Below are positions 9,117 through 29,799 of a stretch of DNA of 53,648 nt, in pieces. The stretch lies in the sequence record MT446403.1; one strand, written 5' to 3'. Source of the DNA: Escherichia virus TH29. The stretch's first letter is position 1; the number at the start of each line of letters is the position of its first letter. A program made the translations under genes and the position numbers. A model generated the notes under the pieces. The model did not search any database. It worked only from the letters and a program-made list of their open reading frames with translations, and was not told the DNA's origin.

Positions 9117-11057
9117 TTACTGGCAGAAGTAGTAAGCGTGTTCGCTCATAAGCAGCTCTTCAGTAACAATGTTCTCGTGGTACATGTTGATGCCACCAAG
9201 TTGCTTAGACAGAGATTCAAACTGGTTATTATGAACAAAGATTTCAATATAAGCAGAACGAATAACTTCCATCATTTTAGGAGCATCAGCCAAGCAGCAA
9301 CGGAAACAATCGTGAATTGAAGTAAAGCCACGAAGACCAGCTTCTTTAGCTTTGACTGCAACAGTACGAGCAACCAATGCGTCAATACCTTGAATGTAGT
9401 TAACAACGAAGGTACGCTTGAATTCTTCTTTAGTTGGATTGGACTCACGAATGGTCCAAGGCTTATTCTCCTGAATCTGACCAAAGATGACACGAGTTTG
9501 ACTATCAACACGAATGCTGAATGCATCACAAACATCACGAGATGGGAAGCAAGGCTTCATTACAACTTGACCATCAGTGTGCTTATAGGTGATGTACTCT
9601 TTGTTGAGTTCAACACAACGAGCAAATGCAGCATCAGCAGCTTTCTCAATGAACATGTTAATCTTAGCACCCAATGCGTTATGGATTGCTTCTACACACA
9701 GTTCAGCAAATGCCTCAGCTTTCTCCATAGGAATCTGGAGCGCTTCTGTCATGTATGCAATGAAGTCAGAAGAACCAGTTAATGCAGCTTTACCACCACC
9801 ATATTGGATAGCCATGTATGGAGTTTTGATAAACTTACGACCAGCTTTCGGATTCAAGAATTCATCCATAATTTCAGCGGATGGTTTCATTGAAGAACGG
9901 TCTAATAACTTCAACAGTTCACGGAGAGATAACTGGTATGGGTCAGATGCTTTAGTCTCAGAATCAACCAGACCTGTAGCACGAGCCATTTCCATGTTAC
10001 CAGCAATGAATGCCAGATATTGAGTACCAGAACATTTAGCATCTAAGCCAAAGCCTACACGAGAATCACACTCACCTGTAGTCTCAAACTTGAACCAATC
10101 CAGAGCCAGACGAACATAAGTGAATGGCTTAGAAGGACGCTCACCTTTAGGCATGTTCAGCATACGAGCCAAAGAACCAGCAGGATTCTGTGCAACATAG
10201 GTTAAACGTTTTGCAGAAGTCCAGTCTCCACCAGCAATATCTTCCAGCTCAAGCATGAACATGTTGTATGCCAGAGTTGTTGAACCATCAGCATTAAACT
10301 TGCTCACAGTGTTCTCAACATTGTGGGAATACAGGCAACGAGCAAAGTCAGATGATTGTGGGTTAGGACCAGCACATGCTACATGATACAAACGACCACG
10401 GTTATCAGCAAAGTAGTCAGAGAACAGAGTGTCCTGACCAACCATTGCTACAGCATTGTTCCAAACATGGAGTTCAGTCTGGATTGCTTCTGGCATCTGT
10501 AAGCCACCAAATGTACGTTGTTCTAACATGGAAGAGATAACCCTAACCATTGTTGCATCAACGTGATATTCAGTATCTTGCAGGAATTCGATTGCAGCTT
10601 TCAGAGTTTTGGATGGCTTAACTTTGCCACCTTTAACGAAAGGCTTGCGACGAGATTCAGTTGTTACCTTCTCAGTGAATGGAACTGAGGTATCTTTGGT
10701 TGTAACCAGTTCAACCCATGCATCAGTCATCTGGAACGATTTGTCCTCGTTCATGGTGATGAAACCGAAGTGTTTAGCCAGACCAATCAGGTTGATAGCT
10801 GGGTCAACATAGTGCATTGACTTTAAGTCGTTGTTGTAACGGTTGGCATCAGCAATGGAAGCAGAAGCCAGTTCAACCATCGAGATAGCTGGAATAACGT
10901 CATCACGCGTGAAAGACGTCATCATCTTGAATATGGCTAAGGCAGCAATAGCACAAGTCTGAGGCTGCATATAGTTCTGCTTCTCTTTGGCACGGTATAC
11001 CAGAGCGGTGATAGCAGGGACAACAGATTTGATAGTTTGAGTAGTGATAGTAGTCAT
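9117..11057 (-). CDS. Single-subunit (T7-like) DNA-dependent RNA polymerase, compact form of about 646 aa
   Basis: Motifs align to T7 RNAP: DNRGRLYHV, LDAKCSGTQYLA (motif A), RKFIKTPYMAIQYGGG (motif B), IHDCFRCCLAD (motif C). Start set at MTTITTQ (ATG 11055-11057, GGAGA RBS), not the ORF-track TTG at 11144. Confidence 0.85.
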   Translation of the reverse strand: MTTITTQTIKSVVPAITALVYRAKEKQNYMQPQTCAIAALAIFKMMTSFTRDDVIPAISMVELASASIADANRYNNDLKSMHYVDPAINLIGLAKHFGFITMNEDKSFQMTDAWVELVTTKDTSVPFTEKVTTESRRKPFVKGGKVKPSKTLKAAIEFLQDTEYHVDATMVRVISSMLEQRTFGGLQMPEAIQTELHVWNNAVAMVGQDTLFSDYFADNRGRLYHVACAGPNPQSSDFARCLYSHNVENTVSKFNADGSTTLAYNMFMLELEDIAGGDWTSAKRLTYVAQNPAGSLARMLNMPKGERPSKPFTYVRLALDWFKFETTGECDSRVGFGLDAKCSGTQYLAFIAGNMEMARATGLVDSETKASDPYQLSLRELLKLLDRSSMKPSAEIMDEFLNPKAGRKFIKTPYMAIQYGGGKAALTGSSDFIAYMTEALQIPMEKAEAFAELCVEAIHNALGAKINMFIEKAADAAFARCVELNKEYITYKHTDGQVVMKPCFPSRDVCDAFSIRVDSQTRVIFGQIQENKPWTIRESNPTKEEFKRTFVVNYIQGIDALVARTVAVKAKEAGLRGFTSIHDCFRCCLADAPKMMEVIRSAYIEIFVHNNQFESLSKQLGGINMYHENIVTEELLMSEHAYYFCQ

Positions 11058-11124
11058 TTGTAAGTCTCCAAGATTGTGTATGATTTGAATGAAACGGATT
11101 ATAATAGCGTAGCCATTACACAAT

Positions 11125-11140
11125 TCACGTCCAACTAATA
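11125..11140 (-). promoter_or_regulatory. Conserved motif copy tcacgtCCAACTAATa
   Basis: About 70 bp upstream of the RNAP start codon. Confidence 0.45.
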
Positions 11141-11326
11141 TCACAAACCTGTGCCATTGTTAGCACAGCACAGGGACTTTGACCTTGACTCATAAGCGAA
11201 GCGCCTAACTTGGTGTTGTTTGAAAGCCGATAGGCTGCAGGAAAAAGTTGGGGCAGGGACCGTATTTAAGTCCGATAGGACGTTGGGCTTCCCCTCCCCG
11301 CCACCTCAAAAATAAAAATAATATCG

Positions 11327-11401: not shown

Positions 11402-11452
11402 CCGTAACAATATTTAAATTAAAAAAAATTATATAAAAATTTTTTATAACAT
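11402..11452. promoter_or_regulatory. Strongly AT-rich tract next to the iterons, possible DNA unwinding element
   Basis: ccgtaacaatatttaaattaaaaaaaattatataaaaattttttataac is nearly pure A/T. Confidence 0.4.
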
Positions 11453-11717: not shown

Positions 11718-12836
11718 TCATAATTCAAATCCACCGAGTGCATTAGTATCAACTTCAGAGTCAATTTGCCCAACCAGGTAGGAACTAATCTCAGTCTCCT
11801 GTGGAGCAACCTGTACAGCATCCGAATTCAACCATGCATTAATCCACGGAATAGGATTCGTAGCATCCTTAAATGGAGCATCTAATCCAACTGCTTGCAT
11901 ACGAATATTCGTGATATATTCCACATATCCACACAGAATTTGCTTGTTTAAGCCTATCATTGAGCCATCTTTGAACAGATAATCGGCCCAATCTTTCTCT
12001 TGTTGAGCAGCATCTTCGAACAATTTCTGGCATTCTTCACGACATTCTTGAGCAATTTCGCCCATTTCTGGGTCATCTTTTCCACTCGCCAGAATATTCA
12101 ACATGTGCTGAGTTCCGGTCAAATGGAGTGCTTCATCTCGTGCAATCAGTCGAATAATCTTGGCATTTCCTTCCATTAGCTTACGTTCAGCGAAGGCAAA
12201 TGAGCAAGCAAAGCTAACATAGAAGCGAATTGCTTCCAGTGCGTTGATAGACATGAGGCATAAATAGAGCTTCTTCTTCAACTCACGAAGACTAATTTCA
12301 TGACCGACATGATTCCCTTCCCCAAACAACTGCCATAATGCAGTAAGTTGTTGGAGTTCGTCGTAATATTGGGAGATGCCAATTGCCCGTGCTTTGATAT
12401 GTTCGTTAGTTACGATTTCATCAAAGATTACGCTTGGGTCTGTAACGATGTTACGGATAATGTGAGTGTAAGAACGTGAATGGATAGTCTCGGAGAAGGA
12501 CCAAGTTTCAATCCAAGTTTCAAGCTCAGGAATGCTAACGATTGGAAGCAAAACTGTGTTAGGCCCACGTCCCTGAATGGAGTCCAGAAGGATTTGATAG
12601 CGCAAATTACTGGTGAAAATGTGCTGCTCATTTGGTGGGAGCTTCTGATAATCAATACGGTCTTGTGAAACATCCACCTCTTCTGGTCGCCAGAAGAATG
12701 ACAATTGTTTCTCAATCAACTTCTCGAATATGCCATACTTCTGCTGGTCATAGCGAGCAACGTTGACGTTCTGACCAAAGAACATTGGTTCTAATAGTTG
12801 GTTATTCTTGGTTTGTGAAAAGGTAGTGTAAGACAT
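11718..12836 (-). CDS. nrdB: Class Ia ribonucleotide reductase small subunit (NrdB), very close to enterobacterial NrdB
   Basis: 372 aa; N-terminus [22 protein letters not shown] and internal [29 protein letters not shown] are near-identical to E. coli NrdB as recalled from memory (roughly 80 percent, not computed). Confidence 0.9.
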
Positions 12837-23564: not shown

Positions 23565-26500
23565 TTATCTACGTTCCATTGCACCATTACCCATGTTGAT
23601 TGTTTGGGTAACAGTTTGACCGTTCGGAGTTGACACGGTTGCAGACGCTTGCTTATTGTTCACAGTAGCTTTGACTTCAACGTTAACTACAGTGGCCTGT
23701 GTCTGACCATAAGACAGTCCATTTCTGGTGAAGCCAGTTGCACCTTCTGCAATAGAATCGCCCTGAGAAGCCCATTCACGGTACTTCTTGACGCGGTTCT
23801 GTGCCTGTAGAGGAACAGCATTGAGCCAGTCGGTTCCGTGTTTGTTGATAGCATCATCAACAGTTCCAGCACCATCCGTATACGCCGCCATAGCCTTCTC
23901 AGCGTCACCATTATAACGCTTGAGCATTGCATCATAGTAGTCACGACCAACGCGAGCACGCTCTTCCAGCGAGTTATCACGGGCAGGTTTAACACCAAAT
24001 CCTGGGTCACGGGAAGTTGAATCAAGAACCTGCATACGACCTTTAGCACCAGTCGGAGATGTAACCACCGAACCATCTGCGTTCAAATCGCGGTTCCCTG
24101 ACTCCTCTCCTGCGATAAAGTCATATACCGTTCTGGTAGTATCAGCTAAACCATTTGACGCTGTACGCGCTACTCTGGCTGCATCTCCACCTGCTTCGAT
24201 AAATGAACTCCCGTAGGATATTGCAGCTTGCGGAACTGCGTATCCTGGCAGCACCCCAGCACGCTCCGTCTGCGCTATTCCTAGCTGTGCAACGCCATCG
24301 GCATACTGTGAGTTGGCTCCACGGCTTACGTTCTCCTGAGCCTCGTTCACGCTGTAATCTGTACGGTCATAGGCGCGAGCCATGCCATCCAGACCTGCCA
24401 TCTCCATAGCCCCAGCGATACGAGCCTGACTCCAGCCCCGCTCCTGACCACGTTCACGCATTACCCGCGCTAAGGCCACAGGGTCGCCCTGTGCCGCACG
24501 AATGTCGCCAATAGTGATAAGACCACGGGTTCCCTGAACGATGTTGACAGCGCCGCTGGGGTCGCCATTCAGGAGGGTGTTATAGGCACTATGTGTGGTT
24601 CGATTGAGTCGGCCAGCTTGTTGCTGATTAAGCCCCAACATTTCCAAGCCCTGCGACATGGAAGAATACTCATTAGGGTTATTGACACCAGCGTCTAAAG
24701 AGTTTCCGTAGAAATCGTTCAGACCTTCGAGCGCCTCGTTACCAATCTGGGTAGCACCAATAGCCATACCCGCCACACGACCCCACGGAGTCATCATGAG
24801 AGCATTCATCGCACCATTGGATAGTGAGCCTATACTACCGCCAGCCACGCCAGCAGCCAATGCGCCACCAGCACGACCGAAGTCATCTGAGAAGCTGCCG
24901 CCAGTGTTCCAACCACGACCACCGCCGCCACCGGAACCACCTCCACCAATGCCATAACTACTAGCATCGAAGGTGTCCCAGAAGCCGCCACCACCGCCAC
25001 GACCACCATTGTCCCCGAAGTCGGCATCTTGTCCACGCAGCTTGTTTTCTTCCTGAGCAGCGAGGATACCTTTCTTGACAGATACTGCCATCAGGTCATT
25101 ACCAGTTGTGCTGTCAGAGCCTACGGCAGAGGCTGTGGCTTCACCAACTCCAGCACTGGTACGGTTGCCTATGAATGGGTCATCGGCTGTACCAGCAGCG
25201 GCAGAGTAGCCACGCGTTGACTTCTGCTTAACATCCTTCCAGATGCCATCGCCAGTCATTGCAGCACGAGCACCTTTGATTAAATCATCATTGGACAAGT
25301 CTGAATTAGCTTCAACAAACTCTCGACCAGCATTAAGACGACCAATAGTAGAATCAATCTTATCTTTGTTGCGTTCGTACCATCCCTCGTCTTTCTCAAT
25401 CCATTCCGATACCGTCTTGTCTCCGATTGTCTGAGAGAACAATGCACGACTACGGCCAGATACAAGCATACCAAATTGAATTTGGTCGAGGTAATCCTTA
25501 TGCTCACCAGCAGATAGGTTAGAAAACTTCTTAGCCCTTTCAGGGTTCTTGTGTTCCCAAATCGCGTCATCACCGATAAGGCCATCTGGGGAATACATGA
25601 ACGACGGATAATTGTCATTTGTTATTGCGCCAGCTTGCTCAATGTCGAATCCAAACTCTTTGGCGACACGGTTACGAGCAACTTCTTCCGTCCGATGACC
25701 TGCTTCGAACATTCGTTGGGTAAATTCACTTGGCCCCTTTCCGCGTTGTAGGCCAATTTTATCAACCATTGCAGCCCAAGGTCGAGTATATTCATTGTTA
25801 CCAAGAAATGAACCGACAGTTGAGCCAGTAATGTCATATTGCTTGCGGAAGTCTAACCATTCCTGAGTGCCCTGTTCCATGTTGTGATAACGGATTGGAC
25901 CTTCTTGCGGAGCTGGTTGTGGAGCAGAGTCCAAATTAGATATAGCAATGCTCTCGCGACGGGCGCGAGCAGAGTTCCAACTTGTTGGAGAATCAAGTTG
26001 TGCAAGAAACTCTGTAGAGGGACTCAGTTCTACAGGTCCAGTATTCCTTAAACGTTCAGCAGGGTCGAATGTTCGAGCGACTTCTGCCTCATTATATTGA
26101 TGAGCATTCTCAAGAACGCCACGAATAGATGAACCAGAGTAACGAGGGTCGTCACCAATATCTTTCTTAAGGTTATCGTAACCGGAACGAACATCTGCAA
26201 TGTCTGCGTAACGAGAAGCAGAGTCCAGAATTAAATCTCTGTCAGAAGATTGAGTGCGATATGCATTCATTCCTCTTTCAGCACCACCAGAATAAACCTT
26301 TGCCGCAGATTTAACTACGCCAGAAACATCTTGGTAGAGCGTTTTGCTTGCATCAGACCAACCTGGAGAACCAGACAAGGATGCAGATAAAGAATATTCA
26401 GCCTTAATGCCACCACCAAACGAACCAAGAGGTAAACCAGATGCGTTAAGAGGCTGTCGAGGATGCTGAATATCACCGACAATAGATTCGGAGCCAAGTT

Positions 26501-27242
26501 GTGGCAATGAATCCATGTATGAAAGTTTTGGCCCCGACTTATTTCCTACATTCATTGCAGATACGGCAGCAACTTCTCGGAAGTTTTGCGGTAATTCTGA
26601 TTCTAAACGTTTGGCTACACGATAAACATCTCGTGCATAGCGGTCTGGGTTGTCGTATTGTTCACGGTCAACATACATGTGAGCAAGATAACCAAATGAC
26701 TTGGCAATATCTCCACGGTTTGTGGAATATTCATCCATAATATTACCGGTGTAGTGTCCGGCAAGTTCAGGCATTATATCTTGATGACCTGCAAGAGTAT
26801 CTCGCATGTACGAGTTAAGCATTCCCCAATGACCTTCCGGCTTGTTGGGGTTGGCTTTAGGCATGTGCATCCAAACATCATCAGTGGATACACCAAGTTG
26901 TTCCATGTATGCGTGAACTGCTTCTACATGGTGTCCTGGTCCGTTCATTGCAGCATGGAATGTTTCAGTCAGCCCAGCACCAGAAATCATCTGTGCTACA
27001 TGTGCTGCATCTGAAATCATATCAGAAGTCCCGTATGAAGTTTCATCCTCATACATCTGGGAATCTGGTTCGCCCAAAAGCTGTGAATTTGTTTCCATCC
27101 AACCTGACGCAGCACTTGATTCAAGTTGCTGGGCCATATCTCGTTTGCGCATACCAGGATTGAAGGACAGACCGTACTGAGCACCCATGCCGATTAGTTC
27201 GGCCTCGGATAGCTTCATTAAATCTTTTAAGTTCTTAGCCAT
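23565..27242 (-). CDS. Tail tape measure protein with C-terminal lytic transglycosylase (SLT) domain
   Basis: 1225 aa; Gly-rich central tract (GGGGGFWDTF..., GGGGSGGGGGRGW); C-terminal ESGNRDLNADG...GAKGRMQVLDSTSRD...AYTDGAG matches SLT motifs. Confidence 0.8.
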   Translation of the reverse strand: MAKNLKDLMKLSEAELIGMGAQYGLSFNPGMRKRDMAQQLESSAASGWMETNSQLLGEPDSQMYEDETSYGTSDMISDAAHVAQMISGAGLTETFHAAMNGPGHHVEAVHAYMEQLGVSTDDVWMHMPKANPNKPEGHWGMLNSYMRDTLAGHQDIMPELAGHYTGNIMDEYSTNRGDIAKSFGYLAHMYVDREQYDNPDRYARDVYRVAKRLESELPQNFREVAAVSAMNVGNKSGPKLSYMDSLPQLGSESIVGDIQHPRQPLNASGLPLGSFGGGIKAEYSLSASLSGSPGWSDASKTLYQDVSGVVKSAAKVYSGGAERGMNAYRTQSSDRDLILDSASRYADIADVRSGYDNLKKDIGDDPRYSGSSIRGVLENAHQYNEAEVARTFDPAERLRNTGPVELSPSTEFLAQLDSPTSWNSARARRESIAISNLDSAPQPAPQEGPIRYHNMEQGTQEWLDFRKQYDITGSTVGSFLGNNEYTRPWAAMVDKIGLQRGKGPSEFTQRMFEAGHRTEEVARNRVAKEFGFDIEQAGAITNDNYPSFMYSPDGLIGDDAIWEHKNPERAKKFSNLSAGEHKDYLDQIQFGMLVSGRSRALFSQTIGDKTVSEWIEKDEGWYERNKDKIDSTIGRLNAGREFVEANSDLSNDDLIKGARAAMTGDGIWKDVKQKSTRGYSAAAGTADDPFIGNRTSAGVGEATASAVGSDSTTGNDLMAVSVKKGILAAQEENKLRGQDADFGDNGGRGGGGGFWDTFDASSYGIGGGGSGGGGGRGWNTGGSFSDDFGRAGGALAAGVAGGSIGSLSNGAMNALMMTPWGRVAGMAIGATQIGNEALEGLNDFYGNSLDAGVNNPNEYSSMSQGLEMLGLNQQQAGRLNRTTHSAYNTLLNGDPSGAVNIVQGTRGLITIGDIRAAQGDPVALARVMRERGQERGWSQARIAGAMEMAGLDGMARAYDRTDYSVNEAQENVSRGANSQYADGVAQLGIAQTERAGVLPGYAVPQAAISYGSSFIEAGGDAARVARTASNGLADTTRTVYDFIAGEESGNRDLNADGSVVTSPTGAKGRMQVLDSTSRDPGFGVKPARDNSLEERARVGRDYYDAMLKRYNGDAEKAMAAYTDGAGTVDDAINKHGTDWLNAVPLQAQNRVKKYREWASQGDSIAEGATGFTRNGLSYGQTQATVVNVEVKATVNNKQASATVSTPNGQTVTQTINMGNGAMERR

Positions 27243-27869
27243 TGTCTTCTTCTTTAGGTTTTAGTTCATTACGCAAATCAAGTATTGCGTGGAAAGTTAA
27301 CAAATCCATAATAGAGTAGGTCCCGTCCGAGAGTTCTTTAAGAGAACAGAGAGAACTGTCCTCTATTACAGGACGGTGCAGGAAGTATTTTATTTCCGGG
27401 AACTTCTGAGTTAAATCGTTTCCGGACTCGAATTCTTCTGCTCGGCCATTTTGGATGCTTCCACCGCCTCCAATTGTCTGCGTTCGTTGAGTTCGAGCCC
27501 TTGCTTGAAAAAATCAAGGAAGTTCGATTCAAGAACAAATGCAAACACATGGTGCATGAGCATTAAATTGCCGTTGTACTTCATCTGCATAGTGCGTGGA
27601 TTAACTTCGACACCATCAATGGTCGCCATACACACTACACGTTTAATTAATTCTGTTACTTCCGTATGAGTTCCACCCTGCTGCATCAAATGAATAATGT
27701 CTGCAAAGTTATATTTGTTCTCAACGAATGGGAATATCGAAATACCGAGTTTCTGAACAAGCTCGACTTGGAGGTCAAGAGCTTGGCTGGCACCGAGTTG
27801 TCGCGTACCAACCAAGACTGTCTCACCAGAGTCGGCTTGTAACTCGCGTTGGCGAAGTTCACAAGCCAT
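27235..27869 (-). CDS. Predicted -1 frameshift product of the tail assembly chaperone (G/GT-like)
   Basis: Slippery heptamer U_UUU_UUC at 27507-27513 in the zero frame; the -1 frame is open for 88 codons and stops at 27235-27237, overlapping the tape measure ATG. Confidence 0.5.
27411..27869 (-). CDS. Tail assembly chaperone (zero-frame product)
   Basis: 152-aa ORF between the tail tube and tape measure genes, the canonical chaperone position. Confidence 0.55.
   Translation of the reverse strand: MACELRQRELQADSGETVLVGTRQLGASQALDLQVELVQKLGISIFPFVENKYNFADIIHLMQQGGTHTEVTELIKRVVCMATIDGVEVNPRTMQMKYNGNLMLMHHVFAFVLESNFLDFFKQGLELNERRQLEAVEASKMAEQKNSSPETI
27507..27513 (-). other. -1 programmed frameshift slippery site UUUUUUC
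   Basis: Zero-frame codons GAU UUU UUC fit X_XXY_YYZ. Confidence 0.5.
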
Positions 27870-27885
27870 TCTCTTTTACCTTATA

Positions 27886-28341
27886 TTAGACGCCGATTTC
27901 TGGATACTGGCCAGTTACGATGGTAAGGCGTTCTACAAACACAGCCCACATATTCGAAGTGAAAGTTACACCACGAACGATTGCTGGCTGTTGCAGAATT
28001 GCACCATTGACACCGTTAACCAGAACATCACCCATCTTGTCAACCAACTGCAACTGCAAAGGTTCCCAGAGAGATTTGTTACCAGACAAACCAGTTGCAC
28101 GAGTAAGCTGTGCACGTTGGTAAAGGATTTCGTTCCAGTCTGCCGTTTGCAGCAGTGGGAAAGTGATAACCCCAGACTGGTCAGCAGTGGTTGCTACAGC
28201 AAGTTTGCCGTATGCATCCATGACAGGAACATGCTGTGGCACGTTGTATCGTGCCGTAATTACAGATTGCCCTGCCTGAAAACCGTCTACACGAGCACCG
28301 TCAATCAGGAGGTCTGTATTATAAAACGAATATTGCTTCAC
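27886..28341 (-). CDS. Tail tube protein
   Basis: 151-aa ORF directly downstream of the sheath gene. Confidence 0.6.
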   Translation of the reverse strand: MKQYSFYNTDLLIDGARVDGFQAGQSVITARYNVPQHVPVMDAYGKLAVATTADQSGVITFPLLQTADWNEILYQRAQLTRATGLSGNKSLWEPLQLQLVDKMGDVLVNGVNGAILQQPAIVRGVTFTSNMWAVFVERLTIVTGQYPEIGV

Positions 28342-28350
28342 TGTTCACCC

Positions 28351-29799
28351 TTACTGAATGAAGTTGCCAGAGATTACAGCACCCTGGATTGCACCGGAAC
28401 CGATAGCAATAAAGGAAGTACCTTCCCAAATACGTTCGCCCTTCTGCGACTGCAAGAGTTCTAACGGAGTAGAGATAACTTTGTAGCCTTCTGGATAGAA
28501 GACACCTTCGTTATCAAAGCCAGGGGCAATGAGGCCGTTAGTCTTAGCGAGTTCGAGCGCCAGGGTTACTTGCTGGTTAACCATTGCTACACCAGTGTCC
28601 GTCCAAGGAATCTTGGTAGTGGAAGTGTAGAACAAGTTGAACACGTTCAGTCGAACTTTCTGAGTCAGCCATTCAACACCCTGTACGGAGTCGAACCACG
28701 TCCCATCAGCCATACGACCGTTGAAGAACATTACGTTGCCAGCAACAGAAATGAATGCGTTACCACCACAAGCCAGCAGTGCGCTTACCTGACCAGAAGA
28801 CAAGTCAGCAGTGGAAATACCTGGACCTTTCTTGTATGCCAGAATAAGAACAGAGTTTGCAACGTTGAAGTTAACAGTTGATGCACGGCCCAGAATAGAA
28901 ATTTCTGGATATTCATCACCGTTTGCGGAAGCATCGTAAACACACAGAGTGTTACGCAGGTTCTGGTTCTTAGCACGACGGAAGCTGTTATCAGTGCCGT
29001 TGATAAGAATGTTCTTGTCGTTATCACCCCAACCAAATACTTTGCTGGATGCTTCACACCACTTCGCCACAGACATTTGGTTGTCTACTGGAGAGGTTTT
29101 GCCACGATACTGGCGGTCAAGGCCTACATAGAAGAAGTTGAATGGAGCATCTGCAATATTAGACAAGTCGGAAGAGATGGATAGCTCGTTCTTACCAGCA
29201 ACAATAACTGCACTGACAGAAGATTGCAGCTTCAACACTTCACCAACTTTACCACCAACGTTGCTGATAGTTGCGTTGATGCCAGTTGCAGAAGTGGTCA
29301 GCTTGAACTTGCCAGCTTCCTGGGTAACAGTTACGCCAGCACCAACAGAAGATAGTGCAGTAGTTACCAAATTTGCAACTTCGTCGAAGTCGGCAGCAGA
29401 AGAGAAATCAATCGGGTCAGTAACGTACTGAACGCCGCTAACACTTAACTGCATGGTTGCAGCAGTTTCCAGCTTAATGGTTGCCAGTACAGCAGCAGTT
29501 GCAGCAGTAACAGTGGCAGGAGTTGCTGGAGTCAGAGTATCGTACTTGATAGCGCCGACCAGGAAAGTCTTCGGAGTTGGCTTTTGCGAGTACCAAGAGG
29601 TAGCAGCTTTAGCAATCTCACCACCAGGGAAGTCTGCGAGAACTTCTTTCAAACTGGTATACGAGCGAACCGGATATACATCAACGGTTGGTACAAACTC
29701 TTTGCTCAGGAAGAGCAACGGCCCAAAACCATCAGTCGCAATGGCGTTCGGGGAGATTGCGATATCAACCTGAACTAAGTCAGAAATTGGGATTGACAT
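28351..29799 (-). CDS. Contractile tail sheath protein
   Basis: 482-aa ORF upstream of the tube gene; size and order typical of myovirus sheaths. Confidence 0.65.
   Translation of the reverse strand: MSIPISDLVQVDIAISPNAIATDGFGPLLFLSKEFVPTVDVYPVRSYTSLKEVLADFPGGEIAKAATSWYSQKPTPKTFLVGAIKYDTLTPATPATVTAATAAVLATIKLETAATMQLSVSGVQYVTDPIDFSSAADFDEVANLVTTALSSVGAGVTVTQEAGKFKLTTSATGINATISNVGGKVGEVLKLQSSVSAVIVAGKNELSISSDLSNIADAPFNFFYVGLDRQYRGKTSPVDNQMSVAKWCEASSKVFGWGDNDKNILINGTDNSFRRAKNQNLRNTLCVYDASANGDEYPEISILGRASTVNFNVANSVLILAYKKGPGISTADLSSGQVSALLACGGNAFISVAGNVMFFNGRMADGTWFDSVQGVEWLTQKVRLNVFNLFYTSTTKIPWTDTGVAMVNQQVTLALELAKTNGLIAPGFDNEGVFYPEGYKVISTPLELLQSQKGERIWEGTSFIAIGSGAIQGAVISGNFIQ

Follow-up and report, generated by a model that had tools for sequence, protein, structure and literature searches.

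The tail assembly chaperone gene of Escherichia virus TH29 (sequence record MT446403.1) is the subject of this report. We analysed a stretch of 53,648 nucleotides (nt) of this genome, hereafter the window, which belongs to a Chaseviridae (phiEcoM-GJ1-like) myovirus. On the minus strand of the window the order is sheath, tube, chaperone, a -1 reading frame (27235-27513) and tape measure, and the sheath-tube-chaperone-tape measure synteny is the same in 23 annotated relatives in GenBank. As an earlier note written from the letters alone had proposed, the open reading frame (ORF) flanked by the tube and tape measure genes is a member of a tail assembly chaperone family. The gene carries a heptamer of the kind on which ribosomes can slip, and comparison across relatives makes it very probable that the gene is expressed through a -1 programmed ribosomal frameshift. 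The features of the locus are as follows, all on the minus strand.

27411-27869, minus strand: tail assembly chaperone ORF ('G'/TAC-N product), 152 amino acids (aa), 17.2 kDa; stop TAA at 27413-27411
27514-27516, minus strand: TGA of the -1 frame, abutting the heptamer on its 5' side; upstream limit for a productive -1 shift
27507-27513, minus strand: slippery heptamer T_TTT_TTC (U_UUU_UUC in the mRNA) in the X_XXY_YYZ register, formed by Phe120-Phe121 and the third base of Asp119
27411-27506, minus strand: dual-coding overlap, with the G-only tail KQGLELNERRQLEAVEASKMAEQKNSSPETI in the 0 frame and the predicted GT linker QARARTQRTQTIGGGGSIQNGRAEEFESGND in the -1 frame
27235-27410, minus strand: -1 extension beyond the 0-frame stop, the 'T'/TAC-C domain (LTQKFPEIKYFLHRPVIEDSSLCSLKELSDGTYSIMDLLTFHAILDLRNELKPKEEDNG), ending in TAA at 27237-27235
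27235-27242, minus strand: ATGGCTAA, an 8-nt overlap holding the tape measure ATG (27242-27240) and the -1 frame stop (27237-27235)

A slippery heptamer inside the chaperone gene

Residues 23-126 of the chaperone ORF match Pfam Phage_TAC_15 (PF21822) at 54.1 bits (cutoff 22, E 2.8e-14), and the same domain is present in all 26 database homologues. At the slip site the 0-frame codons are GAT (27515-13), TTT (27512-10), TTC (27509-07) and AAG, so that U_UUU_UUC stands in the X_XXY_YYZ register exactly where the earlier note had put it. From the heptamer the -1 frame is open through to the TAA at 27237-27235. The note had recognized this open frame and its end, but two details need correction: the sense codons after the slip number 90 and not 88 (92 including the two re-read TTT), and the stop does not overlap the tape measure ATG, since the TAA sits in tape measure codons 2-3, clear of the ATG itself. 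The ATGGCTAA arrangement recurs in many relatives.

The slip point falls 32 codons before the chaperone stop, which gives a 31-aa G-only tail and a 100-nt dual-coding overlap; from the chaperone stop to the tape measure start there are 168 nt. The predicted fusion would thus comprise 121 + 90 = 211 aa, or ~23.8 kDa compared to 17.2 kDa for the short form.

A site of this type is not expected here by chance. In-register X_XXY_YYZ heptamers number 38 per 16,282 codons in the minus-strand ORFs of the window, equivalent to ~0.08 in the 34-codon overlap, and the heptamer at 27513-27507 is the sole one in the 100-nt overlap; every other candidate slip site there is out of register. Over both strands of the window TTTTTTC occurs once, compared to 19 +/- 4 in dinucleotide shuffles, and the T run of the slip site is the only homopolymer of at least six bases inside a long ORF.

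The window as a whole is strongly depleted in homopolymer runs, with only three of at least six bases (11421-11427, 11440-11445 and 27508-27513). The first two are an A7 and a T6 run ~20 nt apart (11421-11445), placed between the RNA polymerase ORF (which ends at 11144) and a ribonucleotide reductase ORF (which starts at 11718).

Conservation of the slip site

Relatives were drawn from 23 annotated GenBank records (Cleopatravirinae, Nefertitivirinae and Shantouvirus) and 69 IMG/VR loci. These 92 loci hold 75 distinct alleles, 37 representatives at 70% identity and 19 clusters that are <50% identical, the lowest identity being 23%. The IMG/VR scan demanded Phe-Phe at the protein level and left the codon choice free.

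In all 92 loci except phage Faunus (two copies of one genome), T_TTT_TTC or T_TTT_TTT stands in register on an N[F/Y]x[D/S/A]FF motif; Faunus has G_TTT_TTC. Across the family the heptamer lies 11-46 codons before the chaperone stop. In 19/19 clusters a T precedes the Phe-Phe pair, as the last base of a codon for Asp, Ser or Ala (0.60 expected per cluster from local codon usage, P 3e-5), and the first Phe codon of the pair is TTT in 19/19 (expected 0.53, P 5e-7), although it tells against our case that the 19 clusters behind these P values are not strictly independent. Both synonymous forms are used at the Phe/Tyr codon three positions upstream. The seventh heptamer base is C in 31/37 representatives and T (that is, TTTTTTT) in 6/37.

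A conserved homopolymer might be a signal for a polymerase instead of a ribosome. If the host or phage polymerase added one U on the T6 tract, some mRNAs would encode the 211 aa in a single frame; one inserted U puts CAA GCA... in frame and gives the same protein. The phage has its own single-subunit RNA polymerase, the slip site is a homopolymer run that reaches T7 instead of T6C in the 6/37 representatives just mentioned, and such runs are strongly avoided elsewhere in the genome. Part of the avoidance of AAAAAAA and UUUUUUU in E. coli genes has also been put down to transcriptional slippage (PMC4066793), which can be counted in favour of this explanation. The runs themselves are short, however, with 6 T in the window, 5 in Faunus and no more than 7 in any relative. 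Efficient transcriptional slippage usually needs runs of ~8-9 or more and is independent of the reading-frame register. At the seventh position C is kept in 31/37 representatives even though a synonymous change to T would make the run longer, and Faunus keeps the arrangement with 5 T, where G_TTT_TTC still allows slippage in the A site. Moreover, no run departs from the X_XXY_YYZ register, an observation that is confounded by the conserved Phe-Phe. Taken together, we consider transcriptional slippage a very unlikely source of the long product.

Evidence that the -1 frame is translated

Beyond the 0-frame stop the -1 frame is open for 43-89 codons in 92/92 loci, up to the tape measure start, and the T domain is kept as a protein across the family (...L(C)xLxEL...(Y/W)S(I/L)xD(L/V)...LD(L/M)...). 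Pairwise differences in the -1 extension amount to 0.31/0.16/0.64 at the first, second and third codon positions, the pattern of a translated frame (third > first > second). The overlap carries a complementary mark in the 0 frame. In the cluster to which the window belongs (29 alleles), the chaperone gene shows a synonymous diversity of 0.4-0.65, which gives way to 0.04-0.08 over codons 118-133 and to 0.1-0.2 from there to the stop. This tenfold drop is located at codons 118-120, and nowhere in the gene is synonymous diversity lower than in the 12 codons that follow the heptamer (0.04-0.05). Because the synonymous diversity of the 0 frame collapses at the heptamer, dual coding can be placed as starting there.

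These data also bear on whether the partner is instead the +1 ORF at 27338-27550 (reached by a +1 or -2 shift), or whether recoding is absent and the 168 nt form an untranslated spacer. An ATG-initiated ORF of 70 aa does exist in the +1 frame, and a joined coding sequence or other frameshift annotation is found in none of the 23 Chaseviridae-type GenBank records inspected. Yet the +1 frame of relatives never extends as far as the tape measure gene and in most of them is closed 1-25 codons after the 0-frame stop, while a spacer is at odds with the protein-type conservation of the -1 frame and with the lack of a -1 stop in any of the 92 loci. The earlier note had already assigned this ORF to the +1 frame and set it aside as the frameshift product; we agree on both counts (27869-27550 = 319 = 3x106+1 for the frame), and the ORF is not conserved in relatives. 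Either form of this explanation is extremely improbable.

Another possibility is that the downstream domain is a separate small protein with its own start codon. Small ORFs of 37-73 aa are in fact annotated there in several relatives (e.g. phiEcoM-GJ1 gp61, PM1_050, Myduc_065 and pAh6-C gp9) and form phrog_4364. However, the -1 frame has no ATG, GTG or TTG ahead of the conserved domain in 30/37 representatives, the window among them, which bears out the earlier claim that this frame lacks a start of its own. In the window the first such codon comes 66 codons past the slip and would leave 24 aa (MDLL...), cutting the conserved domain. Where start codons are present their positions are inconsistent, and a separate protein would leave unexplained both the synonymous fixation of the heptamer and the onset of dual coding there. 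The start-codon survey thus excludes independent initiation of T for the window, and such initiation is unlikely in general; as an account of the family, a separate small protein is hardly credible.

The T domain of the window matches phrog_4364 ('unknown function') at 9e-17, and Pfam DUF6889 (PF21829; 'unknown function') matches 21/37 homologous extensions (best 1.8e-9), with the window's own extension at 13.3 bits (cutoff 23.9, E 0.071). DUF6889 and phrog_4364 probably both represent the C-terminal domain of the long chaperone form, annotated in error as small ORFs in their own right.

A terminator-like hairpin, GTCCTGTAATAGAGGAC with a T-rich tail, lies inside the -1 extension (27358-27374, minus strand); it is a consensus match only, and two terminator-like sites were found in the region compared to 1.2 expected.

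Stimulatory elements and points against a frameshift

The earlier note called the frameshift canonical. The word suits the heptamer but not the rest of the signal, as no stimulatory element was found. This type of heptamer can shift by itself: in E. coli the H_HH.U_UU.Y class ranks among the best motifs for -1 shifting, and the level is >0.1% without any stimulator for U_UU.U_UU.C, which is used by insertion sequence (IS) elements (PMC4066793). One candidate structure appears in the minimum-free-energy fold.

27424-27500, minus strand: candidate long-range 9-bp helix pairing GGGCUCGAA (27500-27492) with UUCGAGUCC (27432-27424)

The first arm of the candidate helix begins 6 nt 3' of the heptamer, and 59 nt lie between the two arms. 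In 11 Cleopatravirinae sequences 80.6% of cells pair, with two double changes only, and its covariation rests on one sequence. RNAalifold, run on both subfamilies, did not recover the helix in Nefertitivirinae.

Several results count against a programmed ribosomal frameshift and have to be set beside the comparative evidence. With respect to the signal, no Shine-Dalgarno-like sequence lies upstream of the heptamer, the 50 nt downstream of it fold no better than shuffles (z +0.77 in the window), the family mean folding z is -0.67 compared to -0.66 for the control, the candidate helix is not significant (fold z-score +0.34) and an Rfam search gave no match. With respect to conservation, Phe-Phe and Gly124 are invariant in the protein, so part of the nucleotide conservation is protein-driven. 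As for the products, we found no proteomic report of either one in the literature, and the only matches among 5.8 billion predicted proteins were chaperone ORFs of ~151 aa, with no natural single-frame fusion of G and T. Finally, hhalign comparisons detected no sequence similarity to P2 E and E' in either part, nor to lambda T. Such a lack of similarity is usual, as tail chaperones are notoriously diverse, and the definition of a G/GT-type frameshift does not demand homology to lambda G/T or P2 E/E'. The G and T alignments were also run as profiles against PDB sequences and gave no match.

The sequence that follows the heptamer has features of its own. An AGGG (27498-27501, minus strand, 5 nt 3' of the heptamer) is invariant in 21/21 Chaseviridae sequences; the 0-frame codon that gives the A encodes Q, E, S or L, and the -1 frame reads an AGG Arg codon. 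This invariance could reflect a dual-coding constraint or an unrecognised signal. In the IMG/VR loci L060-L092 (23-30% identity) a common GGCGGTATTGG, absent from the window, lies ~4-6 nt 3' of the heptamer; its translation is Gly-Gly-Ile-Gly in the 0 frame but Arg-Tyr-Trp in the -1 frame. Several of these distant loci also have a significantly stable local hairpin there (e.g. L075 z -4.7, L079 -4.3 and L091 -3.4), which the window does not.

A further alternative takes one of two forms: the long form would arise by slippage of the phage polymerase on the sole coding homopolymer tract in this otherwise run-depleted genome, or by a ribosomal shift with an unrecognised stimulator in the near-invariant 12 codons after the heptamer (AGGG included). 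We regard it as improbable.

Proposed mechanism

In the -1 programmed ribosomal frameshift that we favour, most ribosomes would produce the 152-aa chaperone and terminate at 27413-27411. A minority would slip back one base on U_UUU_UUC, where a single tRNA-Phe species is expected in both the P site (UUU) and the A site (UUC). Both tRNAs could re-pair on UUU-UUU, after which reading would continue as CAA GCA AGG ... for 90 codons and end inside the tape measure start ATGGCTAA. The 211-aa product would then consist of chaperone residues 1-121, a 31-aa linker from the overlap and the conserved C-terminal domain of ~59 aa.

If lambda gpG/gpGT and P2 gpE/gpE+E' are a guide, the N-terminal part common to both forms may coat the tape measure protein and the extra T domain may bring in the tube protein; the GT:G ratio would be low and fixed, and neither chaperone form would become part of the virion. 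That slippage takes place and is ribosomal, how efficient it is, and which partner each domain binds we infer from the features above, and the roles given to the shared part, the extra domain and the ratio are borrowed from the lambda and P2 systems.

The two products predict distinct peptides, which are listed here without coordinates.

Junction peptide predicted for the long form: YNGNLMLMHHVFAFVLESNFLDFFQAR
Predicted T-specific peptides: YFLHRPVIEDSSLCSLK, ELSDGTYSIMDLLTFHAILDLR and AEEFESGNDLTQK
Predicted G-specific peptides: YNGNLMLMHHVFAFVLESNFLDFFK, QGLELNER and QLEAVEASK

Neighbouring genes

The tail region of the window is 98.8% identical to that of Escherichia viruses TH23/TH28/TH33 and 97.8-98.1% identical to that of Yersinia phage PYps23T and Escherichia phage MLP1. 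The following genes surround the chaperone or were referred to above.

28351-29799, minus strand: sheath gene, 482 aa (DUF3383, phrog_205)
27886-28341, minus strand: tail tube protein gene, 151 aa (phrog_280 match at 2.4e-29), the upstream neighbour of the chaperone
23565-27242, minus strand: tape measure protein gene, 1225 aa (phrog_19855 match)
9117-11144: single-subunit RNA polymerase gene of the phage

The tube gene is annotated as tail tube protein in PYps23T, 4HA13, PP101 and Mangalitsa, and relatives likewise annotate the tape measure protein, which is the presumed client of the chaperone. The tape measure protein has a YqaJ-like exonuclease/recombinase domain at aa 461-597 (Pfam E 4.7e-12; RecE-like PHROGs also match) and a C-terminal SLT lytic transglycosylase domain at aa 1060-1136. 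A nuclease-like domain within a tape measure protein is unusual, and the gene is annotated as 'exonuclease' in one relative.

Comparison with known systems and significance

The arrangement would work like lambda G/GT and most closely resembles P2 E/E+E'; the signal is of an ordinary kind. In P2, as here, the tail is contractile, the chaperone gene lies directly upstream of the tape measure gene, the heptamer is all-T and in register (T_TTT_TTG at P2 19684-19690), and the -1 stop overlaps tape measure codons 2-3 (ATGAGTAA in P2 and ATGGCTAA here). The two differ in that P2 E has 91 aa and slips ~7 codons before its stop, compared to 152 aa and 32 codons here, and in the seventh base, which is G (a Leu codon) in P2 and C (a Phe codon) here.

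The G/GT-type arrangement that the earlier note had recognized is borne out by the gene order, the in-register heptamer, the conserved open -1 frame and the startless conserved domain. Lambda gpG/gpGT shares the order of major tail protein, chaperone, -1 extension and tape measure, as well as an extension with no start codon. On the other hand, lambda is a siphovirus, its heptamer G_GGA_AAG is read by Gly/Lys tRNAs (Phe/Phe here) and its T part has 144 aa compared to the ~59-aa domain here. The lambda G_GGA_AAG frameshift was reportedly described by Levin in 1993 and by Xu, Hendrix and Duda in 2004, 2013 and 2014. In the lambda model a low-level shift sets a fixed G:GT ratio, the ratio matters and neither product is in the virion; the shared part binds the tape measure protein and the extra domain recruits the tube protein (PMC5009743).

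A 2025 paper has proposed a TAC-N/TAC-NC frameshift with a conserved GTTTTT for Vandenendeviridae (Pakpunavirus) and Andersonviridae (PMC12846349). These are also virulent myoviruses with a poly-T slip site and a -1 frame that is open in all genomes; their downstream ORF is likewise annotated as a separate hypothetical protein, and the evidence is comparative only (PMC12846349). The GTTTTT motif is contained in the G_TTT_TTC of Faunus. They belong to other families, though, and their GTTTTT is near the 3' end of TAC-N, whereas the full T_TTT_TTY here stands 11-46 codons before the stop. The identical heptamer U_UU.U_UU.C is found in IS elements and has been shown experimentally to be shift-prone in E. 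coli (PMC4066793), but in IS elements a structure downstream or a Shine-Dalgarno-like sequence upstream usually accompanies it, and neither is demonstrated here. Stimulated bacterial sites of the dnaX, IS911 and IS3 type are defined by a stem-loop or pseudoknot 5-9 nt downstream of the heptamer, a Shine-Dalgarno-like sequence 10-14 nt upstream of it, or both. Our literature search found no paper on this frameshift in Chaseviridae or phiEcoM-GJ1-like phages.

The main value of the finding is for annotation. In around 100 sequenced genomes of Chaseviridae and related phages only the chaperone ORF is given, in some cases followed by an arbitrary small 'hypothetical protein', and a family-wide rule would correct them: slip at T_TTT_TTY on N[F/Y]x[D/S/A]FF and read on to the tape measure start. 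Although the understanding of the frameshift mechanism is unchanged, the conserved frameshift of tail assembly chaperones would extend to another family of myoviruses, apparently without the need for an RNA stimulator.

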